DNA from: Ostreococcus lucimarinus
Taxonomy: Eukaryota
Length of the DNA: 64,000 nucleotides
Assembly: GCA_000092065.1 (NCBI GenBank)
Contig: CP000586.1
Strand: one strand, 5' to 3'
This document shows positions 42,154 to 62,480 of this stretch, piece after piece. Each line of letters begins with the position of its first letter. Position 1 is the first letter of the stretch. Made by a program: the position numbers and the translations under genes. The notes beneath the pieces were generated by a model that saw only the letters and a list, made by a program, of their open reading frames with translations, was not told the origin of the DNA and did no database searches.

Positions 42154-45100
42154 TTAAATATTTGCGTCGGGCGCAGACGCAGCCGCGCGGGCTCGCCGCG
42201 CGCGGAATCGACGCTGAAGTTTTAAGACGACGAGCATGACGCTCATGGAAATTGGCTTGCCGTCGAGATCAAACAATTCGTTCTCGTCGCCTTCTTCTGC
42301 GATTTCCATCTCGCGAATGGACGCAAAAGAGTCCCCGCGAAGTTCATCGGCGGCTTGTTCTTTGCGAGAAAGTTCTCTGACGAGAGTCGCTCTTCGACGG
42401 ACTTTGTTTCGAAGTCTCAAGAGAGAAGCCCGTTTGGCGTTTCTCCGATCCTCCTCGAGTTCGCGGCGAATTTCGAGCGGGAGGTAGTTGAGATCCACAC
42501 CCATAGCCTTGGCCGTAAAAGCCTGCAAGAGCTCGGTGTAATGAAGAAACCTCGACCCTCCTTGTAGATTGAGCGATCGAACGTGGTTGAGCATGCCCAA
42601 GTCAGTGACGCGCTTGCCCTTCAAACCCAATGGTTTTGGCGTGGCGAGAATGATGGCCTTTACGTCGATCGCGCTGACGAAACCGGTGAGATCTGGGTCG
42701 AACTTTTTCCAAACTCTGCGGAAAGCCTTGACGTCTTCAGGAGTCACGTTCTCATTCTCAGCTTCCTTTCTACTCATCGAATAGTTATCGAGCACGACAG
42801 CGATGAGTAAGTTGAGAATAATGAACGAAGAGAAAGCGACAAAGCTGACAAAGTAAACTGGAGCGACGGCGGTGCCGCAACACGTCCCGATGGCGCAATC
42901 GAAAGAAGCGTCGCAGTTTTTCTTGTTCATGCAATCATTCATGATCTCTTGCCACCCCTCGCCGGTCAACATCCGCAAAAGCGTGGAGAGGGAATTTCCA
43001 AAAGTTTTGAAGTTTGCGTGCCTATTGAGCGCTTCGCCATACGCGAGACGCCCGAAGACTTGTGTGCCTAATATGGCGTATATAAAAAACAGCAGCGCCA
43101 ACAACAGAGATATGTTGCCGAGCGCAGGAATTGTCATCACCAGCGTCTGGAACAACGTGTTCAATGATTTCCACTTTTTCACCATACGGAAAACTCTGCA
43201 GATGCGCAGAGCGCGGAACGCGCTAGATCCCGTTCCCGACTGCAAAATTGCACCCAAGATGGACGTTACGACGATGATAAAGTCGAACACATTCCAACCG
43301 GATGAAAAGTAACGTCGCGGGTACAGCGCGCCAATTTTCATCATCGCTTCAACTGCAAACGCAGCCGTGAAGATGTAGTTCAACACATCCAATGCAAACT
43401 TCTTTGAGGAGCTGTCGTGATCCGTCTCCGTCATGAGCACCACGGTGTTAATGAAGATGATAACCATGATGCTCGCATCAAATCTTGTGTCGTTGATCAA
43501 TTGGAAGAGCTTTGCGCGCCACTTTTGATGAGGCGGTCTTCTGAAAAATGATTGTCGAGCGGTGAAGTTCCTGTTGCGCTGCTGAGCAACCCACCTTGCC
43601 TGTGACTCGCTCATAATGGTGCGCGTCAGCGACGTCGTCGATATCTTCAAAAAGTTGTCGATGACGATACCGATGCACATATTGAACAAGAAGAAGTTCG
43701 ACAGAACGATAAAAATGAGGAAATACCACGTCGCGACTGGAGTACGATCTCGCACGGGCGCCACATCCGTGCCCACGGCGTCAGCTGCGTTGAACATAGT
43801 CACTGTCCACCCTTCGCCAGACGTCGTCTCAAACAACGTGAGCATTGCTCGTGGGAAAGAGTCAAAGTTGCTGTCAGCACTCTCCCAATCTCGAGTGACA
43901 TAAACCGCAGATGTGTAGCTGCCAGTGCATGCAGATTCGGTCGTTTTGGTGTAGTCGTTGCACGAAGACGTTATGACATCCCAAGTCCGCACACTCGTGC
44001 CGTTTGACCAAGAATCGACGCACGCCGATTTAGTGAGAATCGTGGGATCGGAGCAACTTTTAAACTTACCCATGAACAACGACATTCCTGCGATAGCAAA
44101 TATGATCCACACAATCAACGATACCAGAAGCACGTACACGAGACTCGGAAGCGATGCAATGAGCGCGTTGATTACCACTTTTAACCCTTGTACTCGCCCG
44201 AGAAGTCGAAGCGGTCGCAAAACGCGCAAAGTACGTAACGCACGAACCCATTTAAGATCCGCGCTGGATCCGAGACCCATACCGAGCAATCCGAAAAACA
44301 CGATAGTGCCATCGAGAACGTTCCACGGGTTCTTCAAGTACGAGTACTTATCGGCGTTGAACATGCCTAACGCGATCCACTTCATCAACAACTCCACCAC
44401 AAATGCAGAAGTGAAACAGTAATCAAGAATTTCTGCTCTCTCCTCAAAGTTTGGATTGTCCATATTCTCTGGCGTCTCCCAACACATGGTTATACTCGAG
44501 GCAATGATCAACATAAGAATGAACCAGTCAAATCGCCTGTCGTCCGCGATCGCGAAGCACGCTTTACGGACTGGGTGCGATGGCTTGAACAATCCAAAAA
44601 AGCTGCTTTGTTCAAACTTAGTGAGCGGAACTTTACTAAGCGCCCCTGGCTGCTTCTTCTGCATGTCCTTCGGACTCATAATGACGCTGGTTGTCTCAGC
44701 GCTACTTTCTTCCTCAATCATCTTTCTGGCTCGCTGCAATCTCAAATTTTCAACTTTAGCCGCTGCTTTTCTCTTCTCTCTCTTCAGCAATTCGTGGGCA
44801 AAATGTGCAAATCTCGTCGCAGTTTGGGATGGCTCATTATTTGCGCTATCATTCGACTCACGACTACGGACACTGTCCGATTTAGTCATTCGCATCCCAG
44901 CAAACACGCCAAAGATACTTTGTTTCTTCGCAGCCCTACTCTCTTGCAGTTGCTCTTGCAGGACTTCTTTGCGATTGTCAAAGTTGCTCAGCAAGATGGC
45001 GATGAGCGAGTTGAGAATGATAAAGTCGCCCAGAATGAGGACGACCACGAAATACAGAAGAGCGACTTTCGCGGTGGTGAACATGGTGTCATACATCACT

Positions 45101-47601
45101 AATGGCCAATCCTCGTGCGTGATGACTTGCACGACAGTAATAATAGCGTTGTTGAAGGTGTCAAAGTTCGACCGCGGCTTTGGGTCAATCTTACAGTAAT
45201 TGCCGCCAAAAAGTTGCATCCCGACGAGCGCAAAAATCAAAACAAATAGACACAAAATCGCTAGAAAACTCGATAAATCGACCAGAGTCTTCCAAATTGT
45301 TTTAAGCGTGCTCTGTAGAGACTGCCACGTTCGCATCAACTTGAGGATTCGGAAAACTCGGAGCGCGCGAAGGACGGTGAATTTTGACTTGCCTTCACCT
45401 CCATTCAAGCCGAGTTCAATACAAGACACGAGCACAATCCCCGCATCCAACCAATTCATGCGATCACGCACGTACTCAGGTATACCAAGCGCTACGACTT
45501 TAATCAATAATTCAAACATGAAAATCGCAGTAAACGCCAGATTCGCGTTTTCCAGCGCCTCTGAGTAACTGTTAGACATGCCGTCGTATTCCATCGCGAG
45601 CACGAGTGTGTTCAACAAAATACTGAAGTTGATGACCATGAAGAAAAAATCACCATCCACGAACTTCCGCGCACGTGGTTGTACGAAGTTCTTTATTCTG
45701 ACGAGTTGCGTTTTGATCCACTCGAGAGTTTGACTGCGTTTGTGGCGCACGACGGACGCGCTCATTGCTTCTCCTAACCCGTCATTCGTGGCACTTTCTG
45801 AGCGTGATAGCGCCTGGATAGCTCTTTCGAAGGTGGAGAAGCTCCCACTCGAGACTCTTTGCAACTCATCCATAATATTCGCGTCGTAAACCATGGTGAT
45901 GATGGCGAGTGCCAAGTTCAATATCACGAACGATCCAAAAAATATCACGGGCAGGAACCACATCACGACCGCAGGCGATACTGAATCTATGAGGTCTAAC
46001 ATCACGGGCGACCAATACTCGAGGGTTATCGTCTGGAAGATCACGAGCCAAGACCACCAGACGCTATCGAAACTCGCGTATCCATAGTTTGGATTTTCGT
46101 GATCTAAACACTCTTGGCCGCTGGGGCACTGCCACGCGGCTTGGGCGGTGGTTCCACATGCTTGATCTTCGTTCTTTTTCAGCAAAACTGCGTCACCAGA
46201 AGCGCGTTTGATGCATCGTACGTATTCTTGCGCCGTGTAACTCTCGCACGGCACGCTTGGCGGAAGTACATCGAAGCACCGTGTTCTCATCTTTCCGGCA
46301 AAGAACTGCACGCCAATGATACCGAAAATGCAGAAGAATAGCAAAAAGAATACAATCACGTTCGCAAGAAGTGGTAGAGACTTCAACATTGTCTCGATCA
46401 GCAATCGAAGCGATGGGAACATGCTAATCGTTCGCAGCGGACGCAGAATTCGCACTGTTCTTAAGGTGGACACGTTTGACCCCATATCGCCTGGCAGGAG
46501 GGCGACGACGGACACGATGACAATGCCAAAGTCCATCACGTTCCACGAGTCGCGTAAATACGCCCCCGAGTTTTTTGTATTCAATTTACCCACCACACCG
46601 AACGCTATCATCTTCAGCAACGCCTCGAGGGTGAATAAAATAGTGAACGTGAGTTCGCTCCGCTCCGCCGCGTCGTTCCTCGCCCCTCGCGTGGCAAACT
46701 GCCCGCACCCTCTACCCTCCAAGCGCTCGGGTTCGCTGAGGCACAGCAAAATCGTATTCGCAGCGATAATCAGCAGTACGATCCAATCAAACTCGTGTCT
46801 CTCGACGAGCTGAATGCAAAACTTGCGAATCGGGTTCTCCGCCCCGAACACCCCGAACGACTTTTCAGCGTAAATCTTCCCACTCACTCCCACGACTAAG
46901 CTATCCTCGCCCTCGATCGACGCATTTCCCGACGCTGACTCTTGCCTCGCCGCACTCACGTTCGCACTTCGTTCTTTCCCACTCTTCGTGTGTTCGCCCA
47001 AGCGATGATAAATGTCCACCAATTGTTCGCCTCGTTCGTCTCGCTCGCCGTCGTCGTCGCTTGAGTGGGAATCTCTCGCCCCGTCCCGATCGATGCCGTA
47101 ATACGATCCATCATCACCATCACCCTCATCGTCGGAATCGTCGCTCGAGCACGGCGCCGGTCCCGCGCGCGTCGCCGCTCCCGCGCGCCGCGTTTCGTCC
47201 TCCGTCTCGCGCTCGCCGCTCGAATTCCCATCGCTCGAATCCGCGCTCCCGTGTCGCATCACCAGCTCCGCGAACGCGACGGACGACAGCGACGCCCCCC
47301 CGCTCGCGCGTCTTCGTCCCTCGCGCGCGTTTTGCGACGCATCGCGCGCGACGAACGCACCGATCGTCCCCGCGCGTCGTGCCTCCGAATTCGCGTTCGC
47401 GTCGTCGTCGTCTTCATCGCGCGCCCTCGCGCCGCCGCGCGCGTCGCGCCGCCGCGTCGGCGCGTCGCCGGAGTCCGACTCCACGCCCCACCGGCTCGGC
47501 GCCATCGGCATCGCGCGCGGCGCGCGCGCGCGTCGTCGTCTGTCGGCCGGGGCGGCCGGTCTCGTGTCGCAGCGGTAAAAAACACGGACCACGTCGCGCA
47601 T
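42154..47601 (-). CDS. four-domain voltage-gated Ca2+ channel alpha subunit (Cav-like, EEEE selectivity filter)
   Basis: Four homologous 6-TM domains with arginine-ladder S4 segments (RTVRILRPLRTI; LRALRVFRILKLMR; VRALRTLRVLRPLRLL; RALRICRVFRMVKK). Pore loops TLEYW / THEDW / TSGEGW / TGEGW give Glu in all four domains. There is a C-terminal IQ-like basic motif. The ORF-track start is a GTG; the first ATG is at 47601 and the true start is uncertain. Confidence 0.85.
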   Translation of the reverse strand: MRDVVRVFYRCDTRPAAPADRRRRARAPRAMPMAPSRWGVESDSGDAPTRRRDARGGARARDEDDDDANANSEARRAGTIGAFVARDASQNAREGRRRASGGASLSSVAFAELVMRHGSADSSDGNSSGERETEDETRRAGAATRAGPAPCSSDDSDDEGDGDDGSYYGIDRDGARDSHSSDDDGERDERGEQLVDIYHRLGEHTKSGKERSANVSAARQESASGNASIEGEDSLVVGVSGKIYAEKSFGVFGAENPIRKFCIQLVERHEFDWIVLLIIAANTILLCLSEPERLEGRGCGQFATRGARNDAAERSELTFTILFTLEALLKMIAFGVVGKLNTKNSGAYLRDSWNVMDFGIVIVSVVALLPGDMGSNVSTLRTVRILRPLRTISMFPSLRLLIETMLKSLPLLANVIVFFLLFFCIFGIIGVQFFAGKMRTRCFDVLPPSVPCESYTAQEYVRCIKRASGDAVLLKKNEDQACGTTAQAAWQCPSGQECLDHENPNYGYASFDSVWWSWLVIFQTITLEYWSPVMLDLIDSVSPAVVMWFLPVIFFGSFVILNLALAIITMVYDANIMDELQRVSSGSFSTFERAIQALSRSESATNDGLGEAMSASVVRHKRSQTLEWIKTQLVRIKNFVQPRARKFVDGDFFFMVINFSILLNTLVLAMEYDGMSNSYSEALENANLAFTAIFMFELLIKVVALGIPEYVRDRMNWLDAGIVLVSCIELGLNGGEGKSKFTVLRALRVFRILKLMRTWQSLQSTLKTIWKTLVDLSSFLAILCLFVLIFALVGMQLFGGNYCKIDPKPRSNFDTFNNAIITVVQVITHEDWPLVMYDTMFTTAKVALLYFVVVLILGDFIILNSLIAILLSNFDNRKEVLQEQLQESRAAKKQSIFGVFAGMRMTKSDSVRSRESNDSANNEPSQTATRFAHFAHELLKREKRKAAAKVENLRLQRARKMIEEESSAETTSVIMSPKDMQKKQPGALSKVPLTKFEQSSFFGLFKPSHPVRKACFAIADDRRFDWFILMLIIASSITMCWETPENMDNPNFEERAEILDYCFTSAFVVELLMKWIALGMFNADKYSYLKNPWNVLDGTIVFFGLLGMGLGSSADLKWVRALRTLRVLRPLRLLGRVQGLKVVINALIASLPSLVYVLLVSLIVWIIFAIAGMSLFMGKFKSCSDPTILTKSACVDSWSNGTSVRTWDVITSSCNDYTKTTESACTGSYTSAVYVTRDWESADSNFDSFPRAMLTLFETTSGEGWTVTMFNAADAVGTDVAPVRDRTPVATWYFLIFIVLSNFFLFNMCIGIVIDNFLKISTTSLTRTIMSESQARWVAQQRNRNFTARQSFFRRPPHQKWRAKLFQLINDTRFDASIMVIIFINTVVLMTETDHDSSSKKFALDVLNYIFTAAFAVEAMMKIGALYPRRYFSSGWNVFDFIIVVTSILGAILQSGTGSSAFRALRICRVFRMVKKWKSLNTLFQTLVMTIPALGNISLLLALLFFIYAILGTQVFGRLAYGEALNRHANFKTFGNSLSTLLRMLTGEGWQEIMNDCMNKKNCDASFDCAIGTCCGTAVAPVYFVSFVAFSSFIILNLLIAVVLDNYSMSRKEAENENVTPEDVKAFRRVWKKFDPDLTGFVSAIDVKAIILATPKPLGLKGKRVTDLGMLNHVRSLNLQGGSRFLHYTELLQAFTAKAMGVDLNYLPLEIRRELEEDRRNAKRASLLRLRNKVRRRATLVRELSRKEQAADELRGDSFASIREMEIAEEGDENELFDLDGKPISMSVMLVVLKLQRRFRARRARAAASAPDANI

Positions 47602-47809
47602 CGGATCGCGTCGCGACGCGCGTCGCGGCGTCGCGCGCTCGCGCACTCGCGCGCGCGCGAACGCGCGGAACGACGCGGGAGAGGCGTTTACACCGCGCGA
47701 AGACGCGCGAGACGCGCGAAAGCGGCGCGCGAAACGGTGAAGACGAACGAGTCGAACGAATCTCCGCGCGGGTGGTTGAAAACGCCGCGACGAGGACGAG
47801 GCGCGCGCG

Positions 47810-55324: not shown

Positions 55325-58300
55325 ATGTCGCGCGTCGACGGTGGCGCGCGCGCATCGCGCGTCGACGGCGGCGCCCGCGCGGCGCGCGCGCGGCCCGGCG
55401 CGCGCGCGCGCGCGAGAACGCCGGCGGCGACGGCGACGTCGCGCGCGCGTCCCGACGCCCGCGCGCGCCGCGCGCGCGCGCGCGACGTCTCGCGATGCGC
55501 CGCGCGAGACGTCAAGTTTTGCATCGATCGCGGCGGCACCTTCACGGACGTCTACGCGGAGATCCCGCGCGAGGGCGACGCGGGAGAGGTGGCGTTCGTG
55601 ACCCTGAAGCTGCTGAGCGAGGACCCGGCGAACTACGCGAGCGCGCCGAGGGAAGGCATACGACGCGTGCTGGAGACGGTGCACGGACGAGAGATAAAAA
55701 GAGATGAAAAAGTACCGACGGAAAGGATCGAATGGATACGCATGGGGACGACGGTGGGGACGAATGCGTTGCTGGAGAGAAAAGGCGCGGCGACGGCGTT
55801 GGTGACGACGCGCGGATTCGGAGACTTGTTGGCGATCGGAAATCAGGCGAGACCGGATATATTCGATCTCGCGATCGAGCGACCGGGGGCGTTGTACGAG
55901 CGCGTCGTGGAGGTGGACGAACGCGTGCGAGTTTTAGGGGAGGGGGAGCGCGCGCGAGGCGCGAGCGTCGTCGGCTCGACGGGGGAGACGGTGGAGATAT
56001 TGAAACCTTTGGATGTGGAGTCGCTTCGCCCGCGGTTGCGGGCGCTTTTAGACGACGGTATCACGTCTATATCAGTCGTGCTCTTGCATTCGTACACGTT
56101 CGATGAGCACGAACGCGCAATCGGCGCGTTGGCGCGCGAGATGGGATTCCAGCACGTCGCGTTGAGCAGCGCGCTCGTGCCGATGGTGCGCGCTGTGCCG
56201 CGAGGGCACACTGGGTCGGTCGATGCGTACTTGACGCCGTGCATTAGAACGTATATCGACTCCTTTCTGGACGGTTTCGACGAAGGCTTGCGCGACGTCA
56301 AGGTTAGTTTCATGCAATCGGACGGCGGGCTCACGCCGGCGGACAATTTTAGCGGCTATCAAGCCATTTTGAGTGGTCCCGCCGGTGGAGTCGTTGGGTT
56401 CGCTCTCACGACGAGCGCGGCGTTACGCGACGATGGCGACGACGGACGAACACCCATCATAGGCTTCGACATGGGTGGTACGAGCACGGATGTCAGTCGT
56501 TACGATCCGCGGGGCGGGTACGAACAAGTCACAGAGACGACGACGGCGGGCGTCACAGTGCAAGCGCCGCAATTAGATATCACGACCGTCGCCGCCGGTG
56601 GTGGTTCAGCCCTAACATTTCGTTCGAGGACGTTTTACGTTGGCCCAGAAAGCGTGGGATCTCAACCAGGTCCGGTGTGTTATCGCAAAGGAGGCGCGCT
56701 CGCCGTCACAGATGCGAACTTGGTCCTCGGGCGCATCCTCCCAGAATATTTCCCAAAGATATTCGGCCCGAACGAAGACGAAGCGCTGGACTATGAATCC
56801 TCTTACAAGGCATTTGAAGAAGTCACGGCGCGTATCAATGCCGAGACCGGAGAGAGTTTATCGGCTGAAGAGGTTGCGATGGGATTCTTGCGCGTCGCCA
56901 ATGAGGCAATGTGTAGGCCGATTCGCGAAATCACGGAGAGCAAAGGGTACGAAATTTCATCCCACGTTCTGGCCGCTTTCGGCGGTGCTGGACCGCAGCA
57001 CGCATGTGCAATCGCGCGCGATCTGGGAATGTCTACCGTCTTTGTACACAGATTTTGTGGTATTCTCTCGGCATACGGCATGGGCCTTGCCGACGTCGTC
57101 GCCGAGTCACAAGCTGCGTGCGCTGCGAAGTATGAAGACGCACAAGGATTGAAGCGAGCGATGGACGATATGATAGCACTGAAAGAAAAAGTGATATCGC
57201 AGCTCATTTCAGACGGACAGTTCGAAGCGAGTGCGGTGCGATGCGAATGCTTTCTCAATTTGAGATACGATGGCTCCGACACGGCTATGATGGTGCCCGA
57301 ACCAGACGATGGCGACTATGCGAAGGCATTCCGTGAACGCTTCGTGCGCGAGTACGGATTCGATTTAAAAGGGCGAGCATTACTGATAGATGACGTACGC
57401 GTGCGCGGAGTCGCGAATAACTCGCTGCTTACGCGCTTGCCCATCGCGTGCTGCAAACCGGGTGAAAAGCCGATTGCGAACACGAAAACGCGCGTCTACT
57501 TTGAGAACCTTGGTTGGTGCGAGACGCCGGTGTTTCAATTTGAAAGTTTGCTCGGTGGAATGTCCATTGAAGGACCTGCGATCATCATGAATGGGACATC
57601 GACGTGCGTGATTGAGCCGATTTGCGTCGGTCACGTGACAACGTACGGCGACTTGAAAATCACGGTGCCAAACGTCAAAGAGCAAAATGAAACCGTCGAA
57701 GCCGATTACTCTCGTGCCGATGCTATTTTGATTTCGATCTTTAGCAACAGATTTATGGGCATAGCCGAGCGCATGGGCCGAACGTTGCAACGCACAAGCG
57801 TGTCGACGAACATCAAGGAGAGGCTCGATTTTTCGTGCGCCATTTTCGGGCCAGACGGCGGACTTGTCGCGAACGCCCCGCACGTTCCGGTGCACTTAGG
57901 CGCAATGTCCTCGACCGTTTCTTGGCAACTCGAACACTGGGGATTTGACGGTTTGCACGAAGGCGACGTTCTTGTGACCAATCATCCACGTGCAGGTGGT
58001 AGTCACTTGCCTGACATCACCGTGGTCACGCCTGTATTCCGAGACGGGAGAATCGTGTTCTTCGTCGCCTCGCGAGGACATCACGCCGATGTCGGCGGTG
58101 CGACTCCAGGATCGATGCCACCATTTTCAAAAACAATCGCAGACGAAGGTGCCGCCATAAAAACGTTCAAACTCGTCGATCGTGGCGTGTATCAAGAGGA
58201 AGGCATAATCAAACTGCTGACAAAGCCAGATACTGGCAGTCGCGGTACGCGCAAGCTTGCCGATAACTTGAGCGATTTGAGCGCACAAGTTGCAGCGAAT

Positions 58301-59314
58301 CAGCGAGGCATTTCACTTTTGAACGAACTAATTGACGAGTGTGGGCTGGGTCAGGTACAGGCGTACATGAATCACGTACAAGACAACGCTGAGCTTGCTG
58401 TTCGCGACATGTTGAAAACTGCGGCGCAAAACGTCATTGACAATGCCACTCGTCTGGGCGCACAAGTGAACGGCGATAAAGTTACTCTCAGAGCACTCGA
58501 TAAAATGGACGACGGAAGCGAGGTGTGCTTGACGTTGACTCTTGACGCTGCCCATGGTACTGCTGATTTCGATTTCTCCGGCACGTCTCCCGAAGTGTCA
58601 GGAAATTGGAACGCGCCGCCGGCGGTGACAAACGCGGCGGTTATTTACAGCATTCGTTGTCTCGTCAAACAAGAAATTCCACTAAATCAAGGTTGTTTGA
58701 AACCAGTGACGATATCCGTGCCCAACGGATGCTTTCTTTCGCCCTCTGAGGATGCGGCCGTCGTCGGCGGAAACGTCCTCACGTCTCAGCGTGTGACAGA
58801 TGTCTGCCTCGCCGCATTCGGGGCTTGCGCGAACGCCCAAGGATGCATGAATAATTTGACGTTTGGCGATGATAACTTTGGGTATTATGAAACCATCGGT
58901 GGTGGCGCGGGTGCGGGGCCAGACTTTAACGGTGCTTCCGCGGTTCAGTGTCATATGACGAACACAAGAATTACAGATCCAGAAATTTTGGAGCGGCGAT
59001 ATCCAGTCATATTGCGCGAGTTCTCTATTCGTCAAGGCTCTGGCGGTGATGGAAATACGAAAGGTGGCGATGGAATCGTTCGTGAACTTGAGTTCCTGAA
59101 AGATGTCACCGTGAGTGTGTTGTCTGAACGGCGTATTTTTGCCCCAAAAGGTTTGGCGGGAGGCAACGACGGCGCACGCGGAGTAAACTCGCTGCGTCGC
59201 GTGAACGGCGAAGTTGTTGATTTAGGAGGTAAAAATTCCGTGCAAGTCTCCGCAGGCGACGTGTTAAGGATAGAAACGCCAGGCGGGGGTGGATATGGCA
59301 CGAAAATGAGTTGA
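55325..59314 (+). CDS. OPLAH: 5-oxoprolinase (ATP-hydrolysing), hydantoinase A/B fusion
   Basis: FCIDRGGTFTDVYAEIP.. begins as OPLAH does. The protein is 1329 aa with hydantoinase A and B regions throughout. The N-terminal approx. 60 aa are R/A-rich and contain a direct 9-aa repeat. Confidence 0.9.
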   Translation: MSRVDGGARASRVDGGARAARARPGARARARTPAATATSRARPDARARRARARDVSRCAARDVKFCIDRGGTFTDVYAEIPREGDAGEVAFVTLKLLSEDPANYASAPREGIRRVLETVHGREIKRDEKVPTERIEWIRMGTTVGTNALLERKGAATALVTTRGFGDLLAIGNQARPDIFDLAIERPGALYERVVEVDERVRVLGEGERARGASVVGSTGETVEILKPLDVESLRPRLRALLDDGITSISVVLLHSYTFDEHERAIGALAREMGFQHVALSSALVPMVRAVPRGHTGSVDAYLTPCIRTYIDSFLDGFDEGLRDVKVSFMQSDGGLTPADNFSGYQAILSGPAGGVVGFALTTSAALRDDGDDGRTPIIGFDMGGTSTDVSRYDPRGGYEQVTETTTAGVTVQAPQLDITTVAAGGGSALTFRSRTFYVGPESVGSQPGPVCYRKGGALAVTDANLVLGRILPEYFPKIFGPNEDEALDYESSYKAFEEVTARINAETGESLSAEEVAMGFLRVANEAMCRPIREITESKGYEISSHVLAAFGGAGPQHACAIARDLGMSTVFVHRFCGILSAYGMGLADVVAESQAACAAKYEDAQGLKRAMDDMIALKEKVISQLISDGQFEASAVRCECFLNLRYDGSDTAMMVPEPDDGDYAKAFRERFVREYGFDLKGRALLIDDVRVRGVANNSLLTRLPIACCKPGEKPIANTKTRVYFENLGWCETPVFQFESLLGGMSIEGPAIIMNGTSTCVIEPICVGHVTTYGDLKITVPNVKEQNETVEADYSRADAILISIFSNRFMGIAERMGRTLQRTSVSTNIKERLDFSCAIFGPDGGLVANAPHVPVHLGAMSSTVSWQLEHWGFDGLHEGDVLVTNHPRAGGSHLPDITVVTPVFRDGRIVFFVASRGHHADVGGATPGSMPPFSKTIADEGAAIKTFKLVDRGVYQEEGIIKLLTKPDTGSRGTRKLADNLSDLSAQVAANQRGISLLNELIDECGLGQVQAYMNHVQDNAELAVRDMLKTAAQNVIDNATRLGAQVNGDKVTLRALDKMDDGSEVCLTLTLDAAHGTADFDFSGTSPEVSGNWNAPPAVTNAAVIYSIRCLVKQEIPLNQGCLKPVTISVPNGCFLSPSEDAAVVGGNVLTSQRVTDVCLAAFGACANAQGCMNNLTFGDDNFGYYETIGGGAGAGPDFNGASAVQCHMTNTRITDPEILERRYPVILREFSIRQGSGGDGNTKGGDGIVRELEFLKDVTVSVLSERRIFAPKGLAGGNDGARGVNSLRRVNGEVVDLGGKNSVQVSAGDVLRIETPGGGGYGTKMS
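55328..55381 (+). repeat. 27-nt direct tandem duplication in OPLAH 5' coding region (SRVDGGARA x2)
   Basis: tcgcgcgtcgacggtggcgcgcgcgca / tcgcgcgtcgacggcggcgcccgcgcg. Confidence 0.7.
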
Positions 59315-59353
59315 TTGTGATGAAGAATTGTTTTATAAAAATACATGTCGGGG

Positions 59354-60748
59354 TTACTCCGGAAGCGCCGTGCCTCGTTCCAGATTCGCCTTGATTTCCT
59401 TCGAGTATTTGTCGTAACTCTTCGCGAGCATTTTGTTGAACCGGTCGTTTCTGACGTTGATACCGTCGACGTCCTTTGCGGCGTGAGTCTTTTTTTCATG
59501 CGCCTCGGTTCTCTTGCGTTGCGCTGCGGAGATGCCTTGGGCTAAACGATCAATCGCATCTTGTGACGGCTTGTTCGTGTTGTGGTAAATGCTATCCGCA
59601 CCGCGATAAAAGTCCGGCACGCGCGCTTTTTGCGCTTCGTAATCACTCATATCGATTACCGCGTTGGCTCGCTCTCGTTCGTAGTTGGCGTATTGGCGCT
59701 CGGCGCTAAACTGTCCGGCGTCGCTGGGATCATACGTCTGCTTCTTTTTCCCTTTCTTACGACTCGCCTGTTCCATCGTCGCAGTGAGATGAATGGCGTT
59801 CGGATCGATACCTTGCTTCACTAGTGAGTCCGTGCGAGACTTATTCGAAGCTTCTCGAATCTTCCGCTTCTGTGCGTTGGCGTATTCGTCCGGCGCGTCG
59901 ACGCGCTTCTTCTCCTCCACCACCGCCGCCTGATTTTTCTTTCGTCCTTCGTTCAGCTTGAGCCGCAACTCGAAAAGCTTGCGCTGCTTCGCAGACATTC
60001 CAGCCGTAGGATCGACTGCGTCCGCACCTAAATGTTCCTCCACTACACCACCCGTCGCCGCGGCGCGCGCGGCCAAGGCTTCGGCCTCTGCCGCCGACTC
60101 CTTCAGGCGCCGCGCGGAAGCCGCGTCGGGGTTCTCTGCGCCCACCATTCGCGCTTCTTTATCCGCCAACCGCCTCTCAGCCGCTGCTTTAGCTAAGATT
60201 TCTTTACCAGCCTCCGTGAGTTCCTCTTCCTCGATCAGTTCCGCCGCGATCTCCCCGCACTCGACGATTTTCACCGTCTCCCTCGTCTTGCCCGACTTGG
60301 ACCCGCACGCCTCCACTCGTCGCACGACGTCCATCCCATCCACCACCGATCCGAACACGACGTGTTTCCCATCTAACCAAGGCGTGTCTCCGGTGCATAT
60401 AAAGAACTGCGATCCATTCGTGTGCGGTCCGGCGTTCGCCATGGACAACGTCCCCGCCCCCGCGTGCTTGAGCGTGAAATTCTCATCCCGAAATTTCGGC
60501 CCGTACACCGATTCCCCTCCCGTGCCGTCGTGATTCGTGAAGTCCCCGCCCTGAATCATAAAGTTCGGTATCACTCTGTGGAACGTGCTGTCGGCGTACG
60601 ACAGCCTGTGTCCGCGCTCGTTCGCGCAGAGCTGTCGGAAATTCTCACAGGTTTTCGGCACGACGTCGCTTCGGAGCTCAATCGTGATCCTCCCGACGCG
60701 TTCGCGACCGATCGCGACGTCGAAAAAGACGCGCGGCAGCGGCGACAT
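59354..60748 (-). CDS. cyclophilin-type peptidyl-prolyl isomerase fused in frame to full-length splicing factor SYF2
   Basis: N-terminal CypA-like PPIase ([71 protein letters not shown]). A linker follows. The C-terminal part is colinear with SYF2 ([92 protein letters not shown]). There is no stop codon between the two parts. The ORF-track start is a GTG; the first ATG is at 60748. Confidence 0.75.
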
Positions 60749-60885
60749 CGCGTTCGCTTCGGCGCTCGGCGCGACTGAACCTCGCGCGCGCGTCGCTTTG
60801 ACGCGCGTTCGGTGCGCGGCGACCGCCGCCACGAGTGACACGCCATAACGCGCCGCACCGCGCGCGCCGCGCGTCGTTCGTCGCC

Positions 60886-61488
60886 ATGGGTAAAAATCGC
60901 TTGAAAACCAAGCAATTCGCCGCGGTGAAGCGGATGATTAACCCGAAAGACATCGCCAAGCAGCGCAAAGGCGCGGACAAGTCGGGCGAATCGAACAAGC
61001 GGAAAAACAGAGACGAAATCAAACTCAAACGCGTCGAAACGCAGTCGAGCGCGCTGTTCGGGAAGTACAACGCGCTGCTGAAGCCGCCGTATAACGTCAT
61101 CGTCGATACGAACTTCATAAACTTCAGCATCAAGAATAAGATCGATCTGATGAAAGGGATGATGGATTGCCTGTACGCGGAGTGCGTGCCGCACATCACG
61201 GATTGCGTCATGGCGGAGCTGGAAAAGCTTGGACAAAAGTATCGCGTCGCGCTGCGAATCGCGAAAGATCCAAGATTCGAACGGTTGCCGTGCTCGCACA
61301 AGGGAACGTACGCGGATGATTGCATATGCGAGAGGGTGCGACAACATCGATGTTACATCGTGGCGACGTGCGACACGGATTTAAAGCGACGCATTCGGAA
61401 AATTCCAGGGGTGCCGATCATGTTCATGGGGAATCATAAGTACACCATCGAGCGATTGCCGGACGCGGGTGGGATCGGGAACTCGTGA
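60886..61488 (+). CDS. FCF1: rRNA-processing protein FCF1 (PIN domain)
   Basis: Highly similar to human FCF1 ([89 protein letters not shown]). Confidence 0.9.
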
Positions 61489-61583
61489 GCGAGTTGGACG
61501 TCGTTTCGAGTAGCTTAGCTTTTGTACATCATCGTGTGATAACATCGTCGAGCGGGCGGTTGGCGCGCGCCACTGCGAGCCGC

Positions 61584-62480
61584 ATGTTCCGAGACGACGA
61601 CGACGACGGCGAACGCGCGCGCGAGGCCGCCGTCATGCGCCAGCGCGCGTATCTCGCCGAGCTCGACGCGCAGTTGGCACATAAGCGCGAGTTGGCGCGA
61701 CGAGACGCCGTCTTCGGCGACGCCGCGCCACACATCCATCGCTCGCACGAATTTCAATATCGCGCGGCGTCGGCGTCGTTATATTCGGACGACGGCGAGA
61801 ACAGACGATGGGAGAAGACGAGGGAATTGGCGTCGTCGCGAAGCGTGGCGCCGCGCGGGATGGTTCGCGAGAACGACGACGACGGTGGCGCTGAGGCGGC
61901 GGAGCGAGAGTGCCGACGAGAGAAGGCGCAGCTGCGAGAGGCGTTGGAGCGGCAAATCGAAGCGAAGCGACTTGAGCGCGAGCGCGAGCGCGCAGCGCGG
62001 GCTCGAGCGGAGGAAGAGGAAGAACGCCGTTTGCGCGAAGAGCAAGCCGAGTTGACTCGACGGTTTGAACGACGTCGGCGGTTCGGTTTGGCGGATGGTT
62101 TAGCGGATGATTTGCACGACGCGTCGTTGAGCGCGAGCGAGGGTGGTTCTGGCGCATCCGGCGCGACAAACGTCATGAATGCGGCTTCGAATGGTGATGC
62201 GTTCGAGTTTATCAAAGTAGAGTCGACGTTCGTGGAGTTGTCGCGAGACGACGAAGAATCCGACGCCGACGAAAAATCAAAGCCGCCGGAGGTCATTCAC
62301 TCGCCGCCGCCGCGGCAGCTCACGGTGGTGGAAACAGTGATGACGGAACCGGCGAAACCGTCTCCGGCGAACAAGACAGAAGACGAAAGTGATGACGACG
62401 AACCATTACTGCGCCAAGGATCTGTGAAAGCCATGGCGAAAATGTGGGATACGCCGGTGAAGTCAAAACGAGCTCCGTAG
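61584..62480 (+). CDS. hypothetical acidic coiled-coil protein
   Basis: ORF with E/R-rich coiled-coil (EKAQLREALERQIEAKRLERERERAARARAEEEEERRLREEQAELTRRFERRRR) and an acidic tail. The first ATG is at 61584; the ORF-track start is a GTG. Confidence 0.35.
   Translation: MFRDDDDDGERAREAAVMRQRAYLAELDAQLAHKRELARRDAVFGDAAPHIHRSHEFQYRAASASLYSDDGENRRWEKTRELASSRSVAPRGMVRENDDDGGAEAAERECRREKAQLREALERQIEAKRLERERERAARARAEEEEERRLREEQAELTRRFERRRRFGLADGLADDLHDASLSASEGGSGASGATNVMNAASNGDAFEFIKVESTFVELSRDDEESDADEKSKPPEVIHSPPPRQLTVVETVMTEPAKPSPANKTEDESDDDEPLLRQGSVKAMAKMWDTPVKSKRAP

Follow-up and report, generated by a model that had tools for sequence, protein, structure and literature searches.

The locus considered here raises the question of whether a cyclophilin-type prolyl isomerase (PPIase) and the splicing factor SYF2, which in the alga Ostreococcus lucimarinus share one reading frame, are the two halves of a genuine protein or the product of an accidental join, and, in the former case, what the covalent attachment of one to the other could mean for the catalytic spliceosome. 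The window analysed is a stretch of 64,000 nucleotides of contig CP000586.1 (assembly GCA_000092065.1), to which the coordinates refer unless another locus is named. In our opinion the locus very probably represents a genuine, intron-less Cyp-SYF2 gene of the Mamiellophyceae, in the product of which SYF2 would carry a competent CypA-type isomerase into the catalytic spliceosome. The gene is an ordinary member of the already known Cyp-SYF2 family and, as a further orthologue of a fusion on record since 2009, adds little by itself; the additions of this analysis are a linker motif of the green-algal proteins and the recognition that the Syf2 chain of the spliceosome structure 8XI2 is a cyclophilin fusion, which its authors leave undiscussed.

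Two domains in one reading frame

According to the list of open reading frames and the sequence itself, the cyclophilin-SYF2 gene is one uninterrupted ORF of 464 codons on the minus strand (60748..59354), without introns. The listed ORF (59354..60841, minus strand) begins at an upstream GTG and amounts to 495 aa; from the first ATG, at 60748, one obtains a protein of 464 aa starting MSPLPRVFF and ending at a TAA stop codon (59356..59354), such that the limits proposed by the first-pass annotation, 59354-60748, prove exact. This assignment of the complete coding sequence (464 codons plus TAA) is based on the ORF list and the sequence, on Pfam and on the recurrence of the same protein on the metagenome contigs described below. 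Likewise, the order of modules that the annotation had read from the letters, a complete CypA-like PPIase followed in frame by a linker and a full-length SYF2, is borne out concordantly by the ORF, the Pfam matches and the alignments.

The sequence of the ORF contains no stop and no frameshift between the Pro_isomerase and SYF2 domains. A frameshift or short intron hidden in the linker could have separated two genes, and this region was therefore re-checked: the linker is open in the coding frame only, the other two forward frames carrying five stops each. The TGTAA motif occurs nowhere inside the fusion gene, and the PPIase domain is followed by neither a stop codon nor a poly(A)-type motif, either of which would have spoken for two separate messages. 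As judged from the Pfam E-values and from the many orthologues in which the entire ORF is conserved, chance can be regarded as excluded as the source of the two-domain frame.

The gene is tightly embedded between its neighbours. A divergent intergenic region of 137 bp (60749..60885), presumed to serve as a bidirectional promoter, separates it from the Fcf1 gene, the ATG of which lies at 60886 on the plus strand, and a gap of 39 bp (59315..59353) extends from its stop codon to that of the convergent 5-oxoprolinase/hydantoinase gene (55325..59314, plus strand). Such spacing, 39-137 bp at this locus, is very compact and typical for the genome.

Two other frames of the window deserve mention in their own right. 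Directly downstream of Fcf1 lies a Glu/Arg/Asp-rich ORF of 331 aa (61485..62480, plus strand) without a Pfam match, which is a called gene in all orthologous contigs; as listed, it starts at a GTG that overlaps the stop codon of Fcf1, with the first ATG 33 codons further in. At some distance, an ORF of 1830 aa (42154..47646, minus strand) encodes a four-repeat voltage-gated cation channel, with Ion_trans matched in four stretches (E 5e-234), and is situated in the part of the window with the lowest GC content (47-52% vs about 60% elsewhere).

The join in other contigs and in related algae

The compactness of the locus bears directly on the alternative that the join is artefactual, that is, that a small cyclophilin gene and an adjacent SYF2 gene were run together through an error in assembly or sequencing, or because a stop or an intron in the linker had been overlooked. 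With intergenic regions of just 39-137 bp an indel could in principle merge neighbours, and the low complexity of the linker points in the same direction. However, at least 24 marine metagenome contigs, assembled independently from different samples (Tara Oceans and others) and including a scaffold of 824 kb, encode the identical protein of 464 aa, and the six loci compared at the DNA level show 6 synonymous differences in total, confined to two of the six, and no others. The neighbours on those contigs are always the same, with the divergent Fcf1, the conserved gene without a Pfam match and Ssl1 on one side and the convergent 5-oxoprolinase/hydantoinase gene on the other; an orthologue with 71% identity keeps the Ssl1, Fcf1 and oxoprolinase neighbours.

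Diverged sequences tell against an artefact in the same way. Many distinct clusters in the database search, more than 20 in number, contain both Pfam domains and span 100% of the query at 45-76% identity, and more than 15 diverged orthologues read as one ORF through a linker of variable length, which contains a conserved motif; at the window locus the other frames of the linker are closed. At the level of the transcript, a complete fusion ORF of 468 aa is present on a single MMETSP transcript of Nephroselmis pyriformis, which establishes the single-ORF fusion in another alga, and the PDB contains a Chlamydomonas fusion of 563 aa. An artefact of assembly is excluded, and the probability of an artefactual join of whatever kind is negligible. 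The first-pass annotation had left room for an assembly error and for separate genes in related algae; the former is disposed of by the independent contigs and the orthologues, and the latter gives way to a fusion architecture shared among these algae.

In this context, apparently separate SYF2 genes in the databases have to be considered. Several 'SYF2 only' proteins of ~390 aa start with the last 35 residues of the cyclophilin domain. In a GC-rich, perhaps Micromonas-like, orthologous locus (L012, 1966..3777, plus strand of that contig) the cyclophilin and SYF2 ORFs lie on the same strand, the Cyp domain being broken after '...GILSM', apparently by an intron, and the frame changing inside the linker; prokaryote-style gene callers here give a cyclophilin of 118 aa and a SYF2 of 258 aa. 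Taken together, the partial Cyp domain at the start of the ~390-aa entries and the intron and frame change in L012 indicate that the 'SYF2 only' entries are truncated gene calls of the fusion, not separate genes. A further, short contig, L011, was considered as a transcript of the window species and rejected, being genomic and including part of a neighbouring gene.

The cyclophilin domain

The CypA/ABH-type PPIase domain comprises aa 5-167 (60248..60736, minus strand), as delimited by Pfam, the PDB matches and an alignment to human PPIA. The Pfam family PF00160 (Pro_isomerase) is matched at E 5.8e-50 with 170.1 bits vs a cut-off of 21.7, over profile positions 4-158 of 159, and the domain is 61% identical to human PPIA (cyclophilin A). 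All 12 of the 12 catalytic and cyclosporin-contact residues are kept (R58, F63, M64, Q66, A104, N105, A106, Q114, F116, W124, L125 and H129, corresponding to R55, F60, M61, Q63, A101, N102, A103, Q111, F113, W121, L122 and H126 of human PPIA), and the alignment to the human protein is consistent with the match to PDB 1ak4 (E 4e-65). The best PDB matches of this half are PPIF, PPIE and PPIA (E about 1e-65 to 1e-69), and the Cyp domain of PPIE scores about as well as PPIA against the fusion protein (225 bits); naming the domain after any one of the three was dropped, the scores being too close to tell them apart. The label PPIL1 is absent among the best 60 PDB matches, which include PPIF, PPIE, PPIA and unnamed PPIases. 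The Pfam scan detected no RRM domain, the protein beginning directly with the Cyp domain, and the fusion protein has no N-terminal targeting extension.

R58, F63, Q66, A104, Q114, L125 and H129 are invariant or nearly so across the fusion proteins of two alignments, A1 (16 proteins) or A2 (24 proteins), and the isomerase pocket, to judge from these residues, is intact and conserved across the family. This conservation has to be weighed against the alternative that the Cyp domain serves for scaffolding or docking without enzymatic activity, as does the inactive spliceophilin CWC27, and that the fusion is of importance for assembly, not isomerisation. Spliceosomal cyclophilins do often act as binding modules, and in the human C complex SYF2 touches PPIL1 on its back face and not at the active site. 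Yet the retention of 12 of 12 catalytic and cyclosporin-binding residues, most of them near-invariant across 16 or 24 fusion proteins, is what selection on an active site should produce, even if binding of proline without catalysis could also depend on an intact pocket. The conservation of the pocket speaks for proline binding at the least, and we consider a purely structural role of the domain unlikely.

An insertion of 6-7 residues in the 'divergent loop' (e.g. RSARTGTP, QSASSGHA; columns 61-75 of A1, aa ~46-49) is present in the close orthologues P0002, P0006 and P0010 and missing from the window protein and P0008, and thus represents an indel polymorphism between sister clades.

The linker and the start of the SYF2 module

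Between the two domains extends a low-complexity linker of 83 residues (aa 168-250; 59999..60247, minus strand), rich in Ala (25 residues) and Glu (15 residues), as is apparent from its composition and the frame check. Its length varies among the 16 fusion proteins of alignment A1, in none of which it is interrupted. The spacer of the Cyp-SYF2 proteins was reported without any conserved feature (Krücken et al. 2009, PMC2713222). The alignments A1 and A2 nevertheless reveal a conserved motif of 13 residues, aa 205-217 (60098..60136, minus strand), of which S211 never varies among the 16 proteins of A1, while R213, R214 and L215 show at least 90% conservation. The corresponding pattern [DN]-P-D-A-x-[SA]-x-[KR]-R-L is found in the fusions of green-algal type in A2, those of Nephroselmis and the Pedinophyceae among them, and not in the other members of A2; the Chlamydomonas fusion apparently carries the motif too (…DSLARLKAL…). 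Selection on the linker within the population was also considered, but the six contigs with the same protein provide 6 synonymous changes, all in the Cyp domain, and the linker is uninformative in this respect. Between the Ostreococcus-like clades, proteins identical at 70-76% imply that synonymous sites have reached saturation, which leaves dN/dS without use here.

In an AlphaFold2 model, helices are predicted at low confidence at positions 179-199 and 207-232 of the linker. For the whole protein, modelled from the 16-sequence alignment, the mean pLDDT is 65.6 and the pTM 0.35, and the model displays a β-barrel followed by long helices only; derived as it is from a shallow alignment, it is too poor for a fold search or for judging any docking of the linker.

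The first residue of the SYF2 module is Met251, and this position invites the alternative that transcription or translation starts internally, giving a free SYF2 as the main product and the fusion as a minor isoform. A Met is indeed found there in the window protein and in most fusion proteins of A2. Other fusion proteins, however, have Leu at this site, and in stand-alone plant SYF2 with ~90-120 residues upstream the position is also Met or Leu, as expected of a conserved hydrophobic residue; moreover, nine ATGs, in and out of frame, intervene between the first start and Met251, which renders leaky scanning implausible. A dual product is highly improbable on these grounds, and the Met/Leu at the same internal position of the plant proteins led us to reject Met251 as a start codon, whether vestigial or internal.

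The SYF2 module

The C-terminal module, aa 251-464 (59357..59998, minus strand), was delimited by alignment to human, Caenorhabditis elegans, Schizosaccharomyces pombe and Chlamydomonas SYF2. Within it, the core recognised by Pfam PF08231 (59378..59812, minus strand) is matched at E 1.3e-29 with 104 bits vs a cut-off of 23.5, over profile positions 3-154 of 154. The alignment to human SYF2 (5mqf_N) covers residues 10-242 of 243 (E 3.8e-22), and matches extend likewise to the C. elegans and S. pombe proteins and to residues 323-562 of the Chlamydomonas chain 8xi2_M. The module includes an N-terminal helix (27 residues) and a C-terminal segment of 10 residues, and on this sequence evidence the C-terminal half is a full-length SYF2, more than the Pfam core. 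A basic patch, RKKGKKK (aa 330-336; 59741..59761, minus strand), picked out by a regular-expression scan, is a candidate nuclear localisation signal.

Stand-alone SYF2 proteins (human, 243 aa; C. elegans syf-2; S. pombe syf2; land plants, ~308 aa) are homologous to this half over the whole SYF2 length, and share with it the N-terminal helix and the C-terminal NLERGTA motif. Unlike the window fusion, they are devoid of a cyclophilin domain; in its place, land-plant SYF2 has an N-terminal cysteine motif, HPDCxNASNPYHEC. In the sequences of this study, the land-plant SYF2 proteins P0226, P0228, P0230, P0276 and P0277 carry VHPDCxNASNPYHECxxxCF where the algae have the cyclophilin domain.

The fusion protein in the Chlamydomonas C* spliceosome

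Among the PDB sequences, the window protein is matched best by chain M of 8xi2, a 'PPIase cyclophilin-type domain-containing protein' of 563 aa (E 1.5e-101), which matches both halves of the window protein, Cyp at 5-261 and SYF2 at 230-464, and differs from it in having a longer linker (563 vs 464 aa in total). The structure 8XI2 is that of the C* spliceosome of Chlamydomonas reinhardtii, in which chain M is the authors' Syf2 (Cre01.g037400, UniProt A0A2K3E769), purified in the endogenous C* spliceosome and assigned as an NTC-related factor (PMC11833078). Since chain M is both an orthologue of the fusion and the Syf2 of these authors, the Chlamydomonas fusion has been physically recovered, as SYF2, with an endogenous catalytic spliceosome. 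Of chain M, residues 441-510 and 529-543 alone were modelled, the Cyp domain not being seen, and the word 'cyclophilin' is absent from the paper (PMC11833078). By homology and from the Chlamydomonas structure, the SYF2 module is a spliceosomal NTC-related factor of the C/C* complexes.

A family described in 2009

Cyclophilins with a SYF2 domain were defined by Krücken et al. (2009) in Apicomplexa and ciliates, with Ostreococcus tauri CAL53491 named among them (PMC2713222). These proteins begin directly with a Cyp_ABH domain and have SYF2 towards the C-terminus, the listed members being TgCyp66.2, PyCyp74/PfCyp80.9, BbCyp57.3, Tetrahymena XP_001019212 (CSY1), Paramecium XP_001423850 and O. tauri CAL53491 (PMC2713222); the name CSY1 was given to the Tetrahymena fusion gene in the Gene deFuser paper (PMC3143110). 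The window protein conforms to this layout, its single ORF comprising Cyp (aa 5-167) and SYF2 (aa 251-464), and shares with the family the type and order of its domains, an N-terminal Cyp_ABH, a poorly conserved spacer and a C-terminal SYF2. It is shorter, at 464 aa vs 508-677 aa for the full-length apicomplexan members, and its gene is intron-less. The O. tauri protein, from the same algal group, is likened to it by its described architecture. The novelty implied by the first-pass annotation, which knew of no fusion of this kind, was consequently mistaken, the architecture having been published in 2009 with an Ostreococcus protein among the examples (PMC2713222). A search of the literature on algal cyclophilin surveys for mention of SYF2 yielded nothing useful.

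A phmmer search with the SYF2 half against 1.84 billion cluster representatives gave 662 matches at E ≤ 0.001, and among the best 150 of these 662 an N-terminal cyclophilin domain is present in 34. Besides Nephroselmis, the members include Pedinophyceae sp. YPF-701 (CAG9460468.1) and, in the alveolates, Perkinsus olseni and the gregarine Polyplicarium, the latter with a complete ORF on a transcript. A neighbour-joining tree of 132 SYF2 regions did not separate a single from a multiple origin of the fusion; the labels on this tree are unreliable, many of the 'SYF2-only' entries being truncated gene calls.

Two observations touch on the wider distribution. The Cyp-SYF2 cluster P0386/P0436/P0437 holds a transcriptome sequence (MMETSP1066) of the diatom Coscinodiscus wailesii, which represents either a stramenopile fusion or contamination. 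In a survey of the Stentor spliceosome Syf2 was not found, and the 'PPIE' match covers only 54% of the query (PMC9505925); this match could be a ciliate Cyp-SYF2 fusion scored as a PPIE and a missing SYF2.

A proposed role as a tethered isomerase in the catalytic spliceosome

What could be the function of such a protein? In the mechanism that we propose, the C-terminal 214 residues would be the SYF2 of the alga, an NTC/NTC-related factor of the catalytic (C/C*) spliceosome, and the N-terminal 167 residues a putatively competent prolyl isomerase of the CypA type. SYF2 would bring the isomerase into the spliceosome on a flexible, partly helical tether of ~80 residues, and the tethered isomerase may then bind or isomerise proline-containing segments of neighbouring splicing proteins. 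Elsewhere the same role would fall to cyclophilins acting in trans, either free or anchored by an RRM, examples being rice CYP20-2 with SYF2 and human PPIE. For the window protein itself, we infer both the entry into the spliceosome and the isomerase activity there.

The family has some practical interest. Animals and land plants lack the Cyp-SYF2 fusion, and in apicomplexan parasites it has been put forward as a target for drugs; for work on a tethered isomerase, a compact alga with few introns, in which the gene is short and itself intron-less, could prove a convenient choice.

Comparison with other spliceosomal cyclophilins

The first-pass annotation had likened the fusion to PPIL1, which binds the NTC-related SKIP. 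PPIL1 (a partner of SKIP and PRP17) is a spliceosomal cyclophilin of the NTC-related group, yet belongs to a cyclophilin subfamily different from that of the fused domain, which is CypA/PPIE/PPIF-like. Moreover, the Chlamydomonas C* spliceosome holds a separate PPIL1, and PPIE is listed there as 'not observed' (PMC11833078). Since PPIL1 is kept separately, the fused domain is not its replacement, and the analogy with PPIL1 and SKIP is not apt.

A closer parallel is offered by human PPIE (CypE/Cyp33), composed of an RRM and a Cyp_ABH domain and a part of the intron-binding (XAB2/SYF1-AQR-ISY1) complex, where it sits by SYF1, ISY1 and AQR. In both cases a CypA-type isomerase is, or would be, held in the NTC/IBC region of the Bact-C* spliceosomes by a second module; the anchor of PPIE, however, is an N-terminal, RNA-binding RRM, whereas that of the window fusion is SYF2. 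All apicomplexan genomes lack PPIE-like Cyps but have SYF2-Cyps, and this absence, together with PPIE not being observed in the Chlamydomonas C* spliceosome, suggests that the fused Cyp domain may stand in for PPIE. A more far-reaching version would make the fusion the only SYF2 of chlorophytes and alveolates, the Cyp domain a stand-in of the PPIE or CYP20-2 type at SYF1/SYF2/ISY1, and the linker motif a docking element; we regard this combination as speculative and rather doubtful.

The separate-gene counterpart of the fusion is found in rice, where OsCYP20-2 binds OsSYF2 in yeast two-hybrid and pull-down assays and both proteins affect alternative splicing (PMC7483694). The Rosetta-stone link between a cyclophilin and SYF2 that the first-pass annotation had drawn from the fusion thereby gains experimental backing (PMC7483694), and the Cyp-SYF2 family may be taken as a natural Rosetta stone for cyclophilin-SYF2 cooperation, with independent support from rice. 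The rice pair comprises two genes and a non-covalent contact where the alga has a single gene and a covalent one, and CYP20-2 has roles in the chloroplast as well.
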